Source: an uncultured bacterium (GTDB lineage Bacteria; Patescibacteriota; Minisyncoccia; Phycocordibacterales; CAIZLB01). Taken from it: a stretch of DNA of 64,000 bases. Shown piece after piece: positions 17,572 to 58,816 of the stretch (within the stretch, counting starts at the first letter, position 1; each line of letters begins with the position of its first letter). Position numbers and translations under genes: made by a program. The notes below the pieces were generated by a model that saw nothing but the letters and a program-made list of their open reading frames with translations, did no database searches and was not told where the DNA came from. The DNA is taken from the NCBI GenBank assembly GCA_903821355.1, contig CAIJKW010000030.1, positions 27,897 to 91,896 on the forward strand, read 5' to 3'.

Positions 17572-17647
17572 ATTACTAAAGTATACAGAACCTTAGTTTT
17601 TTTGTATAGTGATGTTATCAACCTGTCGTTCAATATAAAATATAAGT

Positions 17648-18862
17648 ATGTCAAAAAGAATATATCTGGATTATGCTTCGGTTACACCAATTGACAAATC
17701 TGTGTCAAAGGAAGTTTTAAGAGTGTCAAAAAAATATATTGCAAATCCATCGTCAATTTATCAAGAGGGAGTTTTGGCTTCGGAATTTCTAGAATCATGT
17801 AGAAAGAGGGTGGCGAGTGTTCTTGAAGTTCATAGCGATGAAATTATTTTTACCTCAGGTGGTACAGAGTCAAATGCTCTAGCAATTAACGGGGTGATTG
17901 ACGGATATAAAAATTCTAAGAAAGATTTAGGAGAAGTAGAAATAAATATTCCGCACATTGTAAGTTCAACAATTGAGCACCCGTCAATCAGAGAACTTTT
18001 ATTTTCACTTGAAAAATCTGGAGAAATTGAAATCTCTTTGATTTCACCAAACGAAGAGGGAATTATTGAGCCAGAAAAAATTGCACAAGCTCTAAAGCCA
18101 AATACGCTTTTGGTCAGCATCATGTACGCCAACAATGAGATTGGAACAATTATGCCACTTATTGCAATCGCAAAGAAGCTGCGTGAATACAAGAAAAATC
18201 AAGGTAGAACTGAATTTGAGATGCCATTTTTACACACTGACGCGTCTCAGGCTGTTGCTTATTTATCCGTAAGAGTCCCATCACTCCATGTTGATTTAAT
18301 GACGATGGATGCTGGAAAAATCTATGGTCCAAGAGGTGTTGGCGCTCTGTTTGTTAAAAGAATTGTTCCATTTAAATCAATTACAAGTGGTGGCAGTCAA
18401 GAGAGTGGAAGGCGAGCGGGAACAGAAAATCTACCAGGGATTGCCGGTTTTGCTTTGGCACTTGAAAAAGTTGAAAAAGAAAAAGCAAAAGAATTTAAAA
18501 AAGTTGAGGCACTTCGCGACCTGCTTTTAGTGAATTTAAAATCGTCAAAAATAAAAAATAGATTTACGATAAATGGTAGCATGTTAGATGGTGAGCGTTT
18601 GCCAAATAATTTGAATATTTGCATTCCAGAGATTGATGCTGAGTTTTTAGTTTTGACATTGGATGCAATGGGTCTCTGTGTGTCATCCGTAACAAGTTGC
18701 AGAACACTCTCTGAAGATTCGTATTCATATGTTGTTGCTGAAATTTCTGGCGATGAATGTTCAAGATCATCTCTGCGTATTTCGCTTGGAAAATATACAA
18801 CTAAATCTGAAGTTTTGAAGGCGGGGAAAATGATTGCTGAGGCGACGGAGAGAATTATGTAG
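17648..18862 (+). CDS. cysteine desulfurase (class V aminotransferase, IscS/NifS family)
   Basis: IYLDYASVTPID…FTSGGTESNALAINGV… and PLP-lysine region DLMTMDAGKIYGPRGVGALFV. Confidence 0.8.
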   Translation: MSKRIYLDYASVTPIDKSVSKEVLRVSKKYIANPSSIYQEGVLASEFLESCRKRVASVLEVHSDEIIFTSGGTESNALAINGVIDGYKNSKKDLGEVEINIPHIVSSTIEHPSIRELLFSLEKSGEIEISLISPNEEGIIEPEKIAQALKPNTLLVSIMYANNEIGTIMPLIAIAKKLREYKKNQGRTEFEMPFLHTDASQAVAYLSVRVPSLHVDLMTMDAGKIYGPRGVGALFVKRIVPFKSITSGGSQESGRRAGTENLPGIAGFALALEKVEKEKAKEFKKVEALRDLLLVNLKSSKIKNRFTINGSMLDGERLPNNLNICIPEIDAEFLVLTLDAMGLCVSSVTSCRTLSEDSYSYVVAEISGDECSRSSLRISLGKYTTKSEVLKAGKMIAEATERIM

Positions 18863-27512: not shown

Positions 27513-28271
27513 CTACCCCAACCCAACCACCCGCTCAAAATCCCTACTTTGCTCATACCTCTTGCCGTACGCCTTGCTCGCCTGATACAGCGCCATCAAA
27601 AGATGATTGATATTTTGATTTTCAATTTTTATGGCGACCTCCCTGAACCAATCGATAAAAAAAGAAAAATTACCAATCATAAACATCTCAGATTTTTCAT
27701 CCATAAAATCTGCAGAAACCTTAACCATGTCCTCCAGCCTCCCCGTGAATGCCTTGGCAACCAACTTAGCGTCAACTCCACTATATTGATTAAAAACACT
27801 TCTCGTCAGGTCTCCATGGACAATACTGTCTACGATAAATCTTTTATCGGTTATTGTTTGGCTAACTTCCTGAACAATCTTCTTTGAAGATCTCTTAATT
27901 GCTTCTCTAAAAGAAAGGCTTGGCTGAATACCGGTAAGCCTGCTTCCGATGGGCTCTTTAGTCACTTCCTGCCAAAGCGTCTCTATTGCTTTAGAACCAG
28001 AATATATTGTTATGGAACCAATTTTGACGATGGGGGACGGTGGCGGAATTGTTTGTTTGGTGGGGGTTTTTGAGGTGGGTAATTTATATATTTTTCTTTT
28101 CTTGTGAAGGGAGAAGGTTATTAGTTTTTTGCTGAGGAGTTTATTAATATTGTATTCGATGGTGCTTCTGGAGGTGGAGAGGCGTTTTGCGAGTGCCGCG
28201 AGGGTTCCGGGGAGAGTGAGGGAGAGGAGGATTTTTCTCTCGTGGGATGATAGATCGAGGTGGGTGGTCAT
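27513..28271 (-). CDS. putative winged-helix DNA-binding protein with uncharacterised C-terminal domain
   Basis: N-terminal HTH-like segment SSHERKILLSLTLPGTLAALAKRLSTSRSTIEYNINKLLSKKLI. The N-terminal coding DNA is G-rich. Confidence 0.4.
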   Translation of the reverse strand: MTTHLDLSSHERKILLSLTLPGTLAALAKRLSTSRSTIEYNINKLLSKKLITFSLHKKRKIYKLPTSKTPTKQTIPPPSPIVKIGSITIYSGSKAIETLWQEVTKEPIGSRLTGIQPSLSFREAIKRSSKKIVQEVSQTITDKRFIVDSIVHGDLTRSVFNQYSGVDAKLVAKAFTGRLEDMVKVSADFMDEKSEMFMIGNFSFFIDWFREVAIKIENQNINHLLMALYQASKAYGKRYEQSRDFERVVGLG

Positions 28272-47682: not shown

Positions 47683-49116
47683 ATGAACGATGAATTAGAC
47701 CAGCAAAATTCGCAAAAAAATATTTATCAAGGTAATTATGAAAATGATTACAAAGATAGTTTAAAAACCAGCACTGATTTTTCTGTTGGTAGTTTACCAA
47801 GCTCTGATCCTGTTGAGGCTCCAAATGAAGCTCCAAAATACATGAATCTCGGCGCGCCAAGAGAGAGAAACGAGGAAGATTTTGCTCATCATGAAAACAA
47901 CATGAGGTCTCTTTTTGGAGAAGATTTTAAAAAAGATTTTTCATCCCTGGGTTTTAGCTCAAAGAAAAAAATGGGCATTGTTGTGGCGCCAAGTGAGAAC
48001 GGCTCAATCTCAAGATTTTTTGCTAGATATTTTAACCTATATTTGCACGGCCCTCATTTCAAGTTAACAAAAACAAGTTCTTCAGCTACCCACACCATTT
48101 CATCAAAAATAAAATGGGGAGTTATAATGCTATTTTTGGCTGTGTCTGTCTCTTCGTTTACAATTCAATCCACTTTATTTTTGAAAGATTATTTTTTTGG
48201 TAATAAGAGTGTTGCGGTGGCTGATATAAATAATCCTCTGCAAGGTAAGGGTGCGATACAAACTGGCTCGATCAATGAATTCAAAGGATCTGACGATGGC
48301 ACAAATGCAAACGGTAGTTCTACAGGACAAAAAATTAATAGAGCTCCACAATATAGATTAAATGATATCTCACATTTTCCTACACTTTCGGCCAAATCTT
48401 TTTTGGTGGCAGATTTAAAGACTGGAGAAATTATCAAAGAAAGCCAGGATGTTGGCGTCTATCCTTTAGCCTCTGTTTCAAAATTGATGACAGGCGTGAT
48501 TGCGTACGAGCAAATGGATCCAAAACAAATGGCAACAGTATCAAGAAGTTCATATAATACATTTGGTACTGAAGGTGAACTTTTACTTGGAGAAACTATT
48601 AGAGTAAGTGATTTAATGTACCCACTACTTATGGAATCAAGCAATGATGGTGCAGAAGTTTTGGCTGATTCATATGGTCACGATAAGTTCATGTCGGAGA
48701 TGAACAAGAAGGCCCATGCGCTAGGGATGAATGACACTTACTACAATGATCCAAGCGGACTTGATCCAAAAAACGTTTCAAATGTTGAGGATCAATTTAA
48801 GCTAGCAAGATATATTTACGAAAAGGACCCCGTGATTTTTGATCTCACAAGAGTTAGACAATTTGAAATTCTAAACCACAGATGGTATAGCAAAAATGCC
48901 ATGCTCAATATAGATTCTTTTATAGGTGGAAAAAATGGTTTTATCGATGAATCAAAGCAAACCACAACTTGTTTGTTTGATATTCAGATGGCAAAAGGTG
49001 GTAAAAGAAAGATTGCAATCATGTTGCTTCGTACAAGTGACAGGGAGGGGGATGTGGTTAAGATACTCAATTTCTTAAAGAAGAACGGGTACTATGACGA
49101 GAGTTTGAATCAATAA
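47683..49116 (+). CDS. D-alanyl-D-alanine carboxypeptidase (peptidase S11, PBP5/6-like) with long N-terminal extension
   Basis: SxxK (ASVSKLMT) and SxN (SSNDG) motifs. A TM segment precedes the catalytic domain. Confidence 0.7.
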   Translation: MNDELDQQNSQKNIYQGNYENDYKDSLKTSTDFSVGSLPSSDPVEAPNEAPKYMNLGAPRERNEEDFAHHENNMRSLFGEDFKKDFSSLGFSSKKKMGIVVAPSENGSISRFFARYFNLYLHGPHFKLTKTSSSATHTISSKIKWGVIMLFLAVSVSSFTIQSTLFLKDYFFGNKSVAVADINNPLQGKGAIQTGSINEFKGSDDGTNANGSSTGQKINRAPQYRLNDISHFPTLSAKSFLVADLKTGEIIKESQDVGVYPLASVSKLMTGVIAYEQMDPKQMATVSRSSYNTFGTEGELLLGETIRVSDLMYPLLMESSNDGAEVLADSYGHDKFMSEMNKKAHALGMNDTYYNDPSGLDPKNVSNVEDQFKLARYIYEKDPVIFDLTRVRQFEILNHRWYSKNAMLNIDSFIGGKNGFIDESKQTTTCLFDIQMAKGGKRKIAIMLLRTSDREGDVVKILNFLKKNGYYDESLNQ

Positions 49117-49140
49117 TTGCAACGCTTTCAGCCAGCTAGT

Positions 49141-49240
49141 CTATGTGGGTCAGATCATCTGGTTAACCTGTGCGGGCCAAATCAGCTAGCTAACCTATGC
49201 GGGTCAGATAACCATCGCTATCGTGCAATATATCACATGT
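49141..49240. repeat. Three degenerate ~30-bp direct repeats (acctatgcgggtcagat…)
   Basis: ctatgtgggtcagatcatc / cctgtgcgggccaaatcagc / cctatgcgggtcagataacc at ~30-bp spacing. Located directly upstream of a promoter. Confidence 0.5.
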
Positions 49241-49251
49241 GATATATTGTA

Positions 49252-49285
49252 TTTGACATAAAAATGCGTATAGTTTAAAATATAA
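49252..49285 (+). promoter_or_regulatory. Sigma-70-like promoter TTGACA-N17-TAAAAT
   Basis: ttgacataaaaatgcgtatagtttaaaat. It drives a ~200-nt GC-rich leader before ORF 49498. Confidence 0.45.
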
Positions 49286-49292
49286 GTGTCAG

Positions 49293-49497
49293 AGTAAAGG
49301 TCCTTGACAATCCACCACCCAGTAGGCGATTGTGCTCAATCGCCCCTCCCGGGAAGGTCAGATTGCAAGGGCCTTTCTCTATTCCCAATATTCCAAAATT
49401 TAAATCCGATTTTCTCAGGGGGGATGAGTTAGCAATGAGCTGACAGTCTGCGTCTAGTCAACGCATACCTAAGGTCCCCCTTAATTTACAAACCCAT
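49293..49497 (+). ncRNA. Candidate structured 5' leader / cis-regulatory RNA upstream of small ORF and ZIP transporter
   Basis: GC-rich segment with hairpins (ggcgattg-tgctc-aatcgcc; GGGGGG…CCCCC enclosing a complex stem) between the promoter and ATG 49498. Confidence 0.3.
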
Positions 49498-49719
49498 ATG
49501 TTTAAAGCAATAGGTTTGGTTGTCCTGCTCATTGCGATTAAGATGTTGATGCCTGACATGTTTGGTTCGATGAATCAGGCTGGCACAAAGTTCTTTAATG
49601 CGATTGGTCGCACTGCGGATGTGGTTGATCCGGCAAACTTCAAGCTTTCTGGATTAGCAAATCCAGCCGGAGTAAATTATATTCCAAAGCCGGCACCATT
49701 CGTAAATAGCTTTCAATAG
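49498..49719 (+). CDS. small secreted/membrane protein
   Basis: 73 aa with signal-peptide-like MFKAIGLVVLLIAIKMLMP. Weak terminator-like hairpin downstream. Confidence 0.35.
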   Translation: MFKAIGLVVLLIAIKMLMPDMFGSMNQAGTKFFNAIGRTADVVDPANFKLSGLANPAGVNYIPKPAPFVNSFQ

Positions 49720-49864
49720 CTAAAGCCAATTTTCATAACAGGCTGAATAAGCCAAAATAAAACCTTATTGCACAGTGCATTAAGTGCCGCTCCATTGGGG
49801 CGGTTTTTGATTGTGAATATATTTCAATAGCCAAATCGGCAAAAATATTGTATGCTACTTCAAT

Positions 49865-50677
49865 ATGTCAATAATCTTTATTAGTATTCTTGCCTGTGCT
49901 TTCACCTTTCTTGGTGGTTTTTTTGCCTTGAAATATAAGGATAAATTACATCTTATAATAGGCTTTAGCGCCGGCGCCATCTTGGGCGTTGCTTTTTTTG
50001 ATTTAATACCAGAGGCTATTGATTTGGCGGGCGATTCTTTCGAAACAAAATCAATTGTCTCAGTTGTTGCTTTTGGTTTTCTATTATATATGCTCGCAGA
50101 TAGATTTATTATTTCTCATCATCACAAAAGCGGAGAGTATTGTGAATGTGAAAATGACGAGGATGATCACGCGCACGATCATGACGATCATGACGATCAT
50201 GGTCACGAACACAACGAGCCAGAGCAAGATGAAAATCAAAGACGCAAAGGCATGCTTGGTGCGGCCAGCCTTTCAGTCCACAGTTTTCTAGATGGACTTT
50301 CAATTGGAATCGCATTTCAAGTGTCGTCTGCCGTGGGAATAATTGTTGCCGTTGCAGTTTTGATTCACGATTTTGCAGACGGTCTCAACACCGTTAACAT
50401 GATTCTAAAAAATAACGGAGAAAGAAAACAAGCTCTGAAATGGCTGGCTGTTGATGCCCTTGCTCCGGTTTTGGGAGTTATCTCAACTTTATTTTTTACG
50501 ATTCCAAAAACGGCGCTCGGATTGATTCTAGCAATGTTTGCTGGATTCTTTATCTACATTGCATCAAGTAACATGATTCCAGAGAGTCACCACGCCCATT
50601 CCACAAAATGGACAACCATAATGACAATTCTAGGAGCCTTTGTTTTATACGTTGCAATAACTTTGGCTGGCATCTAG
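49865..50677 (+). CDS. ZIP-family metal (Zn/Fe) transporter with His/Asp-rich loop
   Basis: ZIP topology. Central loop HHHKSGEYCECENDEDDHAHDHDDHDDHGHEH. Conserved HDFADG. Confidence 0.75.
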   Translation: MSIIFISILACAFTFLGGFFALKYKDKLHLIIGFSAGAILGVAFFDLIPEAIDLAGDSFETKSIVSVVAFGFLLYMLADRFIISHHHKSGEYCECENDEDDHAHDHDDHDDHGHEHNEPEQDENQRRKGMLGAASLSVHSFLDGLSIGIAFQVSSAVGIIVAVAVLIHDFADGLNTVNMILKNNGERKQALKWLAVDALAPVLGVISTLFFTIPKTALGLILAMFAGFFIYIASSNMIPESHHAHSTKWTTIMTILGAFVLYVAITLAGI

Positions 50678-55888: not shown

Positions 55889-58816
55889 ATGCCTAAACTA
55901 CCCAAAAAACCTAAAAAAAGCTTGAAAAAGCATATAGAGAGTCTGACTAAAAAGAAGACTGCAGATACGCAGGTTCATAAAGAGTTGCCCGCACATGACA
56001 TAAATCACGGAGCTCTTCATGGAACTTTAAACAATCCTGCTCTCACTGGAGACATAATAAGCATAAGAGGTGCCAGAACTCACAATTTAAAAAACATTAC
56101 CGTTGATATGCCCCGTAATAAAATGGTGGTAATAACGGGATTATCTGGTTCTGGAAAGTCATCGCTCGCATTTGATACAATTTTTGCAGAAGGACAACGC
56201 AGATACATAGAATCACTTTCCTCTTATGCTCGTCAATTTTTGCGTCAATTACAAAAACCAGATGTTGATGAAATTATAGGACTTTCTCCAGCAATTTCCA
56301 TTGATCAAAAATCTCGATCAAATAACCCTCGTTCAACTGTTGCAACTATCACAGAAATTTATGACTATCTCAGAATTCTTTTTGCAAGAATTGGAAAGCC
56401 GCACTGTTTAATTTGCGGAAGAGAAATTAAAAAACTTTCTAAGGAAGAAATTCTTTCAACAATTTTTAACACAGTTACAAATTCGTCAACAACAGACGGC
56501 GCCGGTGCAAACGGATCCGTCGCAGGTACAACGACAAGTAAAGTCATGGGTGTTGATATTGATAAAGCAATGTTCAAAATTTATGCGCCTGTTGTAATTG
56601 GTAGAAAGGGTGAATATTATCAAATGCTTTATGATTTACTCGGCAAAGGTTATGAAGAAGTGCGCGTTGACGGCGCTATCAAAAACCTGCGTAGCCAAAT
56701 TATTCTTTCGAAAACAAAAAAACACAATATTGATGTTTTGGTTGATCAATTTTATATTTCAGAAATAGGAGACAACTCTGCAAGTTTCAGGGAGCGTCTT
56801 AATGAAGCGGTAGAAAAAGCACTGCATGAAGCTGATGGACTAATTAGAATTATTAGTGATGCCGATGAAGCAATTGCAAGTGGTTTTATAAACGTAGACG
56901 GCAAGGTTGTTGGTCCGGATGGCAAGAAAAGAAAAGCAAAACCTAAGGGTGATGCAGCAGAGGCTCAAGTTGGACATCTTATTTCTTCAAAATTTATGTG
57001 TCCACACGATGGATTTTCTTTTCCTGAAGTTGAACCTCGTCTATTTTCTTTCAACTCTCCATATGGAGCGTGTCCTGAATGTAATGGACTTGGAACAAGG
57101 GAGTTTTTTGTAAAAGATCCTTGTAAGGTTTGTCATGGCGCAAGACTCCGACCTGAAGCCCTTCATGTTTTTCTAAAATCGGCTGTGCCAATGCCTTCAA
57201 TAATCGATACGATTGGTGAAATAAAAAGAGGGGATAGTAAGAATATAAATATCGTTGATCTGACAAAGATGACAATTCAAAATTCTATTAAATTCTTTGA
57301 GACGCTACCTTTAACACCAACTGAAGAAGATATTTCAAGAATCGTAATTAAGGAAATTGTTTCAAGATTGCGCTTTATGGAGAATGTTGGAATAGAATAT
57401 CTATCGCTTGATAGACGTGCAAACACTCTCTCGGGAGGTGAAGCACAGCGTATCAGGCTTGCATCACAACTTGGATCAGGTCTTGTTGGTGCTATGTATG
57501 TTTTGGATGAACCAACAATCGGTCTTCATCAGCGTGATAATGACAGATTGATTCACACACTTTTGCAACTGCGTGACATGGGTAACTCTGTGATTGTTGT
57601 TGAACATGATGAAGATACTATTTTTGCAGCAGATTATATTGTCGATATAGGCCCCGGCGCTGGAGTTCATGGTGGACATGTGGTGGCCGCTGGATGGCTT
57701 GATAAACTACTTACCGCAAAGACAAATCAATCAAGCTCTGTTACTCTTGAATATTTAAGAGGAGAAAAAGTTATTGAGTTACCTGAGCGGAGACGTGATG
57801 AAAATAACGGCTGGATAAAAATTGTTGGAGCAACAGTAAATAATCTTAAAAATGTAAATGTGGATGTTCCTCTTGGCAGAATGACATCTGTTACAGGTGT
57901 GTCTGGTTCAGGAAAATCATCTTTTGTTTATGAAGTCTTGCACAAAAACTTGTTAGCCCGCCTTGATCGAGATCACAGAAGTGCAAACATTTATAATTGC
58001 GCAAGTTTTTCTGGAACAGAATATTTGGGAAGAACTGTGCTGATTGACCAATCGCCAATTGGAAGAACTCCAAGATCAAATCCCGCAACATACACTGGTG
58101 CTTTCACGCATATCAGAGATCTCTTTGCAGAGACAATAGAATCACGCGCTCGCGGATGGAAATCAAGTAGATTTAGCTTCAACGTCAAAGGCGGACGATG
58201 CGAGAACTGCCAAGGAAATGGAATGATTGAAGTTGAAATGCATTTCTTGCCAACGGTCTATGTGACATGTGATATCTGTAATGGAAAAAGATTCATGAAA
58301 GAGACTTTGGAAGTTAAATATAAAAATAAAAATATTTACGATGTTTTGAAGATGACGGTTGAAGAAGCTATCACGTTCTTTGAAGAGGTTCCTTCAATTT
58401 ATGATCGTCTAAAGACCTTGCAAGAAGTTGGTCTTGGATATTTGGAACTCGGCCAGTCCGCGACAACACTTTCTGGTGGAGAGGCACAACGTGTAAAAGT
58501 TTCTTCTGAACTTTATAGAGAGCATATTCAAAAAACAATCTATCTTTTGGATGAACCAACAATTGGTCTGCATTATGAAGATGTGCGCAAGTTAATTGAA
58601 ATCCTTAAACGCCTTGTAAGAAAGGGGAATACGGTTGTGATAATCGAACACAATATGGATATTATAAAATGTTCAGATTATATAATTGATATTGGTCCCG
58701 AGGGTGGAGATAAGGGTGGTAAGATTGTAGCTGTTGGAACTCCAGAGGAAGTTGCAAAAAATACTAATAGTTATACGGGGCAGCACTTGAATAAAGTTCT
58801 GAAGAAATGGGACTAG
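55889..58816 (+). CDS. uvrA: excinuclease ABC subunit A
   Basis: Two ABC modules (GLSGSGKSS…, GVSGSGKSS…), LSGGEAQR signatures and Zn-finger cysteines. 975 aa. Confidence 0.95.

Follow-up and report, generated by a model that had tools for sequence, protein, structure and literature searches.

A candidate RNA switch in the conserved leader of a small membrane-protein gene of Patescibacteria

RESULTS

The locus

We analyzed a stretch of 64,000 nucleotides (nt) from an uncultured bacterium of the Patescibacteriota (contig CAIJKW010000030.1 of assembly GCA_903821355.1, positions 27,897 to 91,896), which we refer to as the window. Our subject is a leader RNA that precedes a gene for a membrane protein of just 73 amino acids (aa), in the intergenic region between a gene for a D,D-carboxypeptidase of the S11 family and a gene for a ZIP transporter (Table 1). 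The leader contains three conserved helices, two of which compete for the same strand, and we propose that it acts as a switch. A preliminary description of this region had listed tandem repeats, a promoter (TTGACA-N17-TAAAAT), a structured leader, the 73-aa open reading frame (ORF), a terminator, and the ZIP gene. We found all of these features, and their coordinates were essentially correct, except that the repeat array starts at 49128 instead of 49141. A perfect palindrome next to the promoter had been overlooked.

Table 1. Features of the intergenic region and its surroundings, in coordinates of the window
Feature	Position	Strand	Remarks
Intergenic stretch	49117-49864		between the D,D-carboxypeptidase gene (Peptidase_S11, 47683-49116) and the ZIP gene (49865-50677); tgt is next
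Three tandem direct repeats, period 27 nt	49128-49155, 49155-49182, 49182-49209	unstranded	64-86% identity to the reference copy; Tandem Repeats Finder score 82
Perfect 24-bp palindrome, CAATATATCACATGTGATATATTG	49226-49249	unstranded	3 nt upstream of the -35 hexamer
Candidate operator motif, ATATCAYATRTGATAT			
Sigma-70-type promoter, TTGACA-N17-TAAAAT	49253-49281	+	TTGACA at 49253-49258, TAAAAT at 49276-49281; 11/12 matches
5' leader RNA, four segments, ~210 nt	49288-49497	+	homologous in 16-17 leaders, four lineages
Helix 1:2 (domain D1), long irregular hairpin	49291-49380	+	segment 1 at 49291-49317, 3' strand at 49356-49380; from the minimum free energy fold
Segment 2, CCCCUCCCGGGAAGGUCAGAUUG	49343-49365	+	5' strand of long-range helix 2:3
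Segment 3, AAAUCCGAUUUUCUCAGGGGGGAUG	49402-49426	+	shared G-rich strand; pairs with segment 2 or, via AGGGGGGAU, with segment 4 (P1)
Domain D2, three-way junction	49417-49482	+	RNAalifold; covariance model R1
P1 (helix 3:4)	49417-49425 with 49474-49482	+	closes the junction
P2	49428-49444	+	loop AAUGA
P3	49446-49468	+	loop CUAGUCA (conserved UAGUC)
J3/1	49469-49473	+	
73-aa small membrane protein gene	49498-49719	+	N-terminal transmembrane helix; C-terminal NYIPKPAP tail
Intrinsic terminator	49786-49812	+	stem at 49786-49804, 8 pairs (6 G-C), then TTTTTG
ZIP promoter-like element, TAGCCA-N17-TATGCT	49828-49856	+	ends 8 nt before the ATG at 49865
ZIP transporter gene	49865-50677	+	Pfam Zip, E = 2.5e-34

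Close homologues of the 73-aa protein form 11 clusters (65-90% identity), and their contigs all have the same order of genes: serS, an ftsQ-like gene, the S11 peptidase gene, the intergenic region, the small ORF, sometimes an extra gene, ZIP, and tgt. In more distant members (L028, L029, and L030-L033, where L numbers denote the loci of relatives; 39-45% protein identity), the order of serS, the ftsQ-like gene, the S11 peptidase gene, the intergenic region, the small ORF, and tgt is kept. The ZIP gene is not present at these six loci, though the leader and the small ORF are, between the S11 peptidase gene and tgt. Our comparisons use 17 distinct leaders from four lineages (16 for helix 1:2, for helix 2:3, and for the comparison of two folds), including 13 distinct close leaders that were aligned. 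All of these sequences represent a single syntenic locus in one bacterial group.

A small membrane protein with its own transcription unit

Judging from the comparison of homologues, the 73-aa ORF is a real coding gene under purifying selection. By codon position, 40, 22, and 61 of the 73 columns are variable, and insertions or deletions are in whole codons. Searches with hidden Markov models and profiles identified a wider family of 51-97 aa in Patescibacteria, with the consensus MFRAIGxVIxLIAIRxLMP...FF...YIPKPAPLP; source names of its members include Candidatus Taylorbacteria and Patescibacteria group. We found no match for the protein in Pfam, NCBIfam, or PDB. In the AlphaFold model, which has low confidence (predicted local distance difference test score of 63, predicted template modeling score of 0.27), an N-terminal helix leads through a kink at Pro19 into a second helix, and the tail is disordered. 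The profile also matched giant repetitive proteins (P0034-P0038 and P0044; 1366-2340 aa), each with 9-17 weak repeat matches, which we judged to be spurious sums; they look like artefacts of composition or repetition and not like homology.

Some public gene calls for homologues are longer (P0001, 84 aa; P0006, 88 aa; P0039, 95 aa; P0050, 93 aa; and P0060, 86 aa). Their N-terminal extensions are translated leader RNA, and P0039 starts at an AUG in loop L2 of the leader. These extended starts are probably mis-annotated start codons.

Upstream of the leader, both promoter hexamers are kept in all close relatives (as TTGACG in L004 and L005). The -10 box TAAAAT is followed by ATAAGTG in every close relative with upstream sequence, and the geometry is fixed, so the promoter of the preliminary description is real. 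Because the same TAAAAT+ATAAGT at 17636-17650 directly precedes the ATG of a gene at 17648, transcription would by analogy start near 49288.

The palindrome is unique in the 64-kb window, where 0 copies are expected by chance. In every close relative with upstream sequence, its arms (AATATATCA and TGATATATT) are kept and the distance from GATATAT to TTGAC is 5 nt; changes at its center are largely symmetric (CACATGTG to CATATATG). At the level of sequence, then, this region has what is expected of a promoter with an operator: conserved hexamers spaced by 17 nt and a dyad site at a fixed distance from them. The palindrome is probably an operator for a dimeric DNA-binding protein, which would add transcriptional control. 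As RNA, it folds with -12.9 kcal/mol (z = -2.65), and another possible role is that of a hairpin at the end of the transcript of the upstream S11 peptidase gene. A partial match at 58260 falls inside a 975-aa ORF and was rejected as a second site.

Distant relatives have different dyad-symmetric elements at the leader promoter (L028:2706-2735, L029:2736-2770, and L030:2700-2735). In L028, GCATGAC-N7-GTCATGC lies inside the promoter spacer, and in L029, the perfect palindrome CCTTGACATATGTCAAGG overlaps the -35 hexamer. The operators and their regulator may have co-evolved.

At the other end, terminators that are homologous or analogous follow the small ORF in all relatives examined, with or without ZIP. 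In the window, the hairpin had been described as weak; it is present, but with 8 pairs, 6 of them G-C, and TTTTTG after the stem, it is a good terminator. The conserved promoter and operator and the unit's own terminator delimit a monocistronic unit that comprises the leader and the 73-aa ORF.

Leaders seem to be uncommon in this organism. Just 3 of 29 long ORFs in the window have a Shine-Dalgarno-like motif, and in several the ATG is preceded, at a distance of 6-9 nt, by a box that resembles TATAAT or TAAAAT (for example, at 17636-17650, 9147, and 19586, and on the minus strand at 28271 and 27347). This suggests that leaderless or near-leaderless mRNAs are widespread, and a 210-nt leader is exceptional for a genome in which most genes appear to be leaderless or to lack a Shine-Dalgarno sequence.

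A structured leader that matches no catalogued family

The leader has a higher G+C content than its flanks (0.41-0.51 versus 0.31-0.40). Its minimum free energy fold has -72.3 kcal/mol (z = -5.15), and 0 of 200 shuffled sequences were as stable. As the preliminary description had suggested, we compared it to Rfam. At gathering thresholds, Rfam 15 identified 7 tRNAs in the window and nothing else, and a permissive scan of 48900-50100 gave no match inside 49117-49497 at E <= 10. The distant leaders L028, L029, L030, and L008 had no relevant match at E <= 5. That no family matches the leader is consistent with an uncatalogued RNA. We also considered a hammerhead, signal recognition particle RNA, 6S RNA, and mimicry of the tRNA-Thr anticodon; by eye, the leader lacks their core motifs, and they have no support from Rfam.

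The 64-kb window contains no further copy of the leader. When we scanned GTDB genomes and JGI metagenomes with a pattern for D2, the only true matches were loci of the same clade in the same context, and the other 4 metagenome matches were due to chance; the pattern required GGGGGGAYGA, which was too narrow in hindsight. A scan of viral contigs with the core of P2 gave two chance matches only, in phage coding sequence. Literature searches found no description of this motif. On present evidence, the leader is restricted to one group of Patescibacteria.

Covariation supports domains D1 and D2

On the close clade, RNAalifold predicts the basal stem of D1 and the three-way junction D2, with compensatory changes at 13 of 34 pairs. 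A covariance model of D2 built from the close clade (R1) recovers the domain in four distant leaders (E = 6e-12 to 3e-8), and all 17 leaders score 42-113 bits. In the alignment of the 17 sequences, which was fitted to the model and whose counts lean toward the proposed structure, 98.4% of cells are in standard pairs, and both sides change at 14 of 23 pairs. If the partner is slid by 1-3 columns, just 39-50% pair. None of 500 shuffles reached the observed value for 4 of 5 measures and 1 of 500 did for the fifth (pair types), statistics that are inflated by the relatedness of sequences from a single locus. The covariation statistics for D2 are optimistic, but at the level of sequence comparison the qualitative result is clear.

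All three helices of D2 contribute. The two strands of P1 change together, from AGGGGGGAU/GUCCCCCUU to GGGAGGG/CCCUUCC and to GGGGAGAGA/UCUCUUUCC; A-U changes to G-C in P2 in four sequences; and all eight pairs of P3 covary. G-U pairs are frequent in P1 and P2, and therefore the plus strand is the functional strand. Sequence is conserved as well, in P2 and its loop (GAGUURGCAAUGAGCYGAC), in L3 (UAGUC), and in J1/2 (GA). D2 is thus a conserved structure with support from covariation, as expected of the aptamer of a riboswitch.

D1 is formed by helix 1:2, which has 11-31 base pairs (bp) in 16/16 leaders. Its compensatory pairs, from RNAalifold, include U-A in 8 sequences and C-G in 4. The apex varies in length and bears a conserved C-rich motif.

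Two further observations concern the variable parts of the leader. First, the D1 apex (49312-49342 in the window, L018:2750-2840, and L019:3370-3440) varies from 0 to ~90 nt. This variation looks like tandem duplications of a module that contains AAUCG(C/U)C, which form extra small hairpins; the hairpin GGCGAUUG-UGCU-CAAUCGCC is common to the window and L019. Second, the variable linker between D1 and D2 contains a canonical terminator of the bidirectional type, AAAAAGCGCUC-CGAACC-GAGCGCUUUUUU, in one relative only (L029:2855-2890).

A conserved helix that competes with P1

In 15 of 17 leaders, the best upstream partner for the G-rich 5' strand of P1 is the C-rich motif in the apex of D1. With a single register, which was set by hand and whose count leans toward the proposed structure, 10-13 of 13 positions are paired in 16/16 leaders. 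This 13-bp core of helix 2:3 is 88.9% paired, as compared to 75.2 +/- 1.8 in shuffles and at most 68% in slid controls. Both sides change at 8 of the 13 pairs, with matched changes such as CUC/GAG, UUC/GAA, CUU/GAA, AGAG/CUCU, and GGGA/UCC; L030 has UUUUU with GAAAA, and in L031 a U-G pair becomes C-G.

If the segments are extended to 32 nt, helix 2:3 has 19-25 bp in 16/16 leaders (-24.6 to -33.2 kcal/mol). In the window, it has 19 bp and -26.7 kcal/mol (z = -4.3), and 0 of 300 shuffles did as well; across the leaders, z ranges from -3.8 to -7.2, and at most 1 of 300 shuffles did as well. In L028, L029, and L030, the leader's own partner pairs better than any foreign one. The extension also explains conserved blocks that were otherwise puzzling, namely a U-run and AAUNNRA before D2 and AAGGUYAGAUUG in D1. 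We relied on counts of base pairs and on the extended segments instead of an energy-only test of cross-complementarity with 14-mers, which did not discriminate because G-rich and C-rich strands pair generically.

Because segment 3 contains the 5' strand of P1 (49417-49425), helix 2:3 and P1 are mutually exclusive. The inner part of D1 also overlaps segment 2. Helix 2:3 is thus an alternative pairing that overlaps an aptamer helix, as in riboswitches. A pairing between segments 1 and 4, which would make the alternative fold fully nested, did no better than shuffles and was rejected. Overall, comparison of the sequences shows a leader of four segments with conserved helices 1:2, 2:3, and 3:4, in which 2:3 excludes 3:4.

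We then compared the two folds, with helix 3:4 (fold A) or helix 2:3 (fold B), by enforcing each helix in turn in a nested energy model of the 16 leaders. The two folds are within ~2 kcal/mol of each other in 8 of the 16, and fold B is the minimum in 4.

DISCUSSION

A proposed mechanism

With moderate confidence, we interpret the leader as a conserved cis-acting RNA switch, which probably controls the small membrane-protein gene. The preliminary description had called it a candidate riboswitch or attenuator, and this label is fair because the leader has both covariation and competing alternative helices.

The proposed switch belongs to an independent transcription unit made of the palindromic operator, the near-consensus promoter, the leader of ~210 nt, the 73-aa gene, and the terminator. 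In fold A, segments 1 and 2 would form D1, and the G-rich segment 3 would pair with the C-rich segment 4 to form P1, which closes the three-way junction with P2 and P3. In fold B, segments 2 and 3 would form a long-range helix of 19-25 bp and P1 would be blocked, which would free the pyrimidine-rich segment 4, whose end is ~16 nt upstream of the AUG. Conversely, stabilization of P1 would release the apex of D1. The three-way junction, with P2/L2 and L3 conserved in sequence, may be the sensing module for a ligand or protein. The output would be translation initiation: a free segment 4 beside the weakly structured start region would favor loading of the 30S subunit via a single-stranded tract, in an organism that rarely uses Shine-Dalgarno pairing. 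Control of termination is unlikely, as the distant relatives have no U-tract after P1. The palindrome may add transcriptional control by a regulator.

Several points weigh against a switch of this kind. The transcription start is predicted, as are both folds and the transcription of leader and ORF as one RNA. In the window, the nested model favors fold A by 16 kcal/mol owing to an additional stable hairpin at the apex of D1, so a switch there would depend on a factor or on a pseudoknotted form. J3/1 has 3-11 nt, depending on the lineage, and its sequence is poorly conserved, which is unusual for a small-molecule pocket, and L008 lacks P2 entirely. The leaning of both pair counts and the inflation of the shuffle statistics, as given above, belong here too. 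We also looked for a conserved pairing by which the switch would sequester the start codon and found none. Most relatives have a predicted hairpin at the start codon (CAAACC with GGUUUG), but its conservation is only partial: it lacks support from RNAalifold, and L010 and L012 have an A-to-C change with no compensating change, so we keep it as a possibility only. Because there is no conserved pairing to the AUG and the start hairpin is only partly conserved, output via translation initiation is the weakest-supported step.

A more specific proposal, which we put forward tentatively and think is rather doubtful, is that the leader represents a new class of riboswitch that is restricted to Patescibacteria. 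The junction would bind a metabolite or ion, and the ligand-stabilized P1 would outcompete the upstream anti-P1 helix and so regulate the small membrane protein.

Other explanations

It is unlikely that the leader is instead a small RNA, stand-alone or dual-function, that acts in trans or binds a protein, with D1 and its exposed C-rich apex as the functional unit. Some Gram-positive small RNAs typically have C-rich loops as seed regions, and the conserved near-consensus promoter suggests high expression. A leader of ~210 nt is also unusual where many genes look leaderless. However, the leader has the same orientation and the same distance to the same ORF in 17/17 loci, the 3' end of D2 is tied to the start region, and helices 2:3 and 3:4 physically join D1 to D2. 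In L008, D1 is directly followed by a U-rich run, and in L029 the canonical terminator (GCGCUC-N6-GAGCGC, then U6) lies between D1 and D2, but L029 is the only leader with an internal terminator. Also, there is no second copy or target-like site in the 64-kb window.

Equally unlikely is a static structure, that is, an element that stabilizes or processes an abundant mRNA, as 5' stem-loops protect bacterial mRNAs. Helix 2:3 would then be a constitutive pseudoknot, with no switching. Such a pseudoknot is conceivable given that the basal stem of D1 does not overlap helix 2:3, and the strong preference for fold A in the window fits as well. However, helices 2:3 and 3:4 share the G-rich nucleotides and cannot coexist, and both partners track changes in the G-rich strand, as in L029. 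If there were no switching, it would be difficult to account for two exclusive partners being kept in four lineages.

A tiny upstream ORF or a decoy for ribosome binding is very unlikely. Here, segment 3 would be the Shine-Dalgarno sequence for the AUG in L2, and loading of ribosomes would decide the fold. GGGAG or AGGAG does lie 6 nt upstream of this AUG in L028, L029, L030, and L031, and gene callers start some homologues at L2 (P0039 begins with MSR, from AUG AGC CGA). But the ORF would have 2, 6, or 19 codons and no conserved peptide, and a conserved 6-bp stem closes the 5-nt loop that contains the AUG. P0050 has GNKLT instead of the expected GNELT, which implies a loop of AAUAA without an AUG (weak evidence, as it is deduced from the protein). 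Similarly, the window has a GUG at the predicted +1, but this mini-ORF is absent from L001 and L010. Also, Shine-Dalgarno sequences are rare in this genome.

The ZIP gene and the metal question

The preliminary description inferred metal-responsive control: the repeats would bind a regulator, the leader would be a metal riboswitch, and the terminator would attenuate read-through into ZIP. ZIP does lie 146 nt downstream on the same strand, and the adjacency holds in close relatives, but we find this explanation scarcely credible: synteny contradicts it (ZIP is absent from the locus in L028-L033, and other genes intervene between the small ORF and ZIP in L004, L005, L006, and L020), this genome alone has the repeats, a conserved promoter-like element of its own precedes ZIP, and no metal riboswitch from Rfam matches. 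A role of the terminator as an attenuation point for ZIP is not supported, as a terminator follows the small ORF in relatives without ZIP too and ZIP has its own promoter-like element.

The upstream regions of ZIP in 7 relatives contain AAAAT(A/G)TTGTAT(G/A)CT at the same distance from the ATG. By eye, this block looks like a promoter and lacks palindromic symmetry, and inverted repeats were not reported at this site either (a Zur or Fur matrix was not applied). ZIP thus appears to have its own promoter and to be a neighbor, not a part of the switch. Because the leader and ORF are kept without ZIP and ZIP has its own promoter-like element, the link to metals is unsupported, and a metal riboswitch for ZIP seems to be an artefact of adjacency in one clade.

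Tandem repeats upstream of the palindrome

The repeats had also been proposed as candidate sites for a regulator, with a search for the motif elsewhere as a check. The 15-mer core of the repeats has no further copy in the 64-kb window, and no relative has the 27-nt repeats in its intergenic region, not even the closest one (L014, 90% protein identity). In L014 and several other relatives, the palindrome begins almost directly after the S11 stop codon. Because all relatives lack them, we read the repeats as a lineage-specific tandem duplication, outside the conserved element, and the sequences of the relatives do not favor regulator sites.

With three 27-nt copies, the array resembles the iterons of plasmid and phage origins, which have at least three tandem direct repeats at regular spacing. 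Unlike iterons, the repeats come with neither an initiator gene nor any sign of an origin, and relatives do not share them. Their neighbors are the S11 peptidase gene and the small ORF, and GC skew has no clear inflection, just small oscillations around 49100-49450.

The 8-mer GGTCAGAT occurs four times in the 64-kb window over both strands (49148-49155, 49202-49209, 49356-49363, and, on the minus strand, ~27216). Three of these copies fall in a span of 215 nt: the tandem repeats contain two, and segment 2 of the leader has the third. The sharing may be due to chance, or leader sequence may be the origin of the repeats or may interact with them. An ORF of 41 aa with a TTG start (49117-49242) spans the three repeats and has a periodicity of 9 residues (SLCGSDHL, NLCGPNQL, and NLCGSDNH). 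It is conserved in no relative and its matches to Kazal domains are below threshold, and we treated it as due to chance. A different insertion with its own repeats (copies of TGTAAACAAAGT and TTTGTTTACAT) lies upstream of the palindrome at L012:835-1050 and in L017, which is the same species-level sequence. The region from the S11 stop codon to the palindrome therefore seems to be a hot spot at which repeats are inserted in individual lineages.

Significance and comparison with known systems

To our knowledge, very few regulatory RNAs have been described in the Patescibacteria (or candidate phyla radiation), nearly all of which are uncultured and whose genomes are tiny. Here, an uncatalogued leader RNA with support from covariation and with two exclusive, conserved pairings precedes an equally uncharacterized, conserved small membrane protein, which is encoded beside genes for the cell envelope (the ftsQ-like gene and the D,D-carboxypeptidase gene). 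It is a concrete RNA of about 140-270 nt that is open to synthesis and testing, and, with the leader defined, gene calls in which the small protein reaches into it are corrected. If it were a new class of riboswitch, it would give a first handle on the function of the small protein and on signaling in these reduced, uncultured bacteria.

The closest formal likeness is to the four-segment attenuators, such as the trp, pyrBI, and his leaders, which also have overlapping helices 1:2, 2:3, and 3:4, with 2:3 excluding 3:4. However, the leader in the window lacks a conserved leader peptide: GUG-UCA-GAG-UAA at its +1 has no counterpart in L001 and L010, and the length varies elsewhere. Also, helix 3:4 is not a simple hairpin with a U-run. 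P1 encloses two hairpins, and a scan for terminators finds none there; it is followed by UUAAUUU in close relatives and by GCCAAAAUCC, CAUAACAC, and ACCAAAAGCC in L028, L029, and L030, respectively. Because helix 3:4 encloses a junction and no U-tract follows it in the distant relatives, the output is probably not intrinsic termination.

Riboswitch aptamers built on a three-way junction, such as that of the purine riboswitch (RF00167), also have a junction of P1, P2, and P3 (~66 nt) in a 5' leader, conserved hairpin loops, and an alternative helix that competes with P1. But in D2, the junction strands are short or variable (J1/2 is GA, J2/3 is 1 nt, and J3/1 is 3-11 nt), the competitor lies upstream and pairs with the 5' strand of P1 instead of lying downstream, no Rfam model matches, and one relative lacks P2. 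As a structure, the leader is a candidate riboswitch whose junction is poorly conserved.

The metal riboswitches (NiCo/czcD, the Mn2+-responsive yybP-ykoY, and the Mg2+-responsive M-box) are similar in being structured leaders near a gene for a metal transporter. They do not match in sequence or structure, the gene that would be controlled here is the small ORF and not ZIP, and the adjacency to ZIP is lost in distant relatives. Protein-binding autoregulatory leaders, such as those of ribosomal proteins and the thrS operator, have stems and loops that are conserved in sequence and lie directly before the start codon. P2/L2 and L3 are conserved in sequence and not just in pairing, as expected for recognition by a protein, but the gene here encodes a small membrane protein instead of an RNA-binding protein.

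More broadly, the leader falls outside each catalogued family when judged by that family's own features. In effect, we regard it as a new family of a known kind, the cis-regulatory leader RNA switch.

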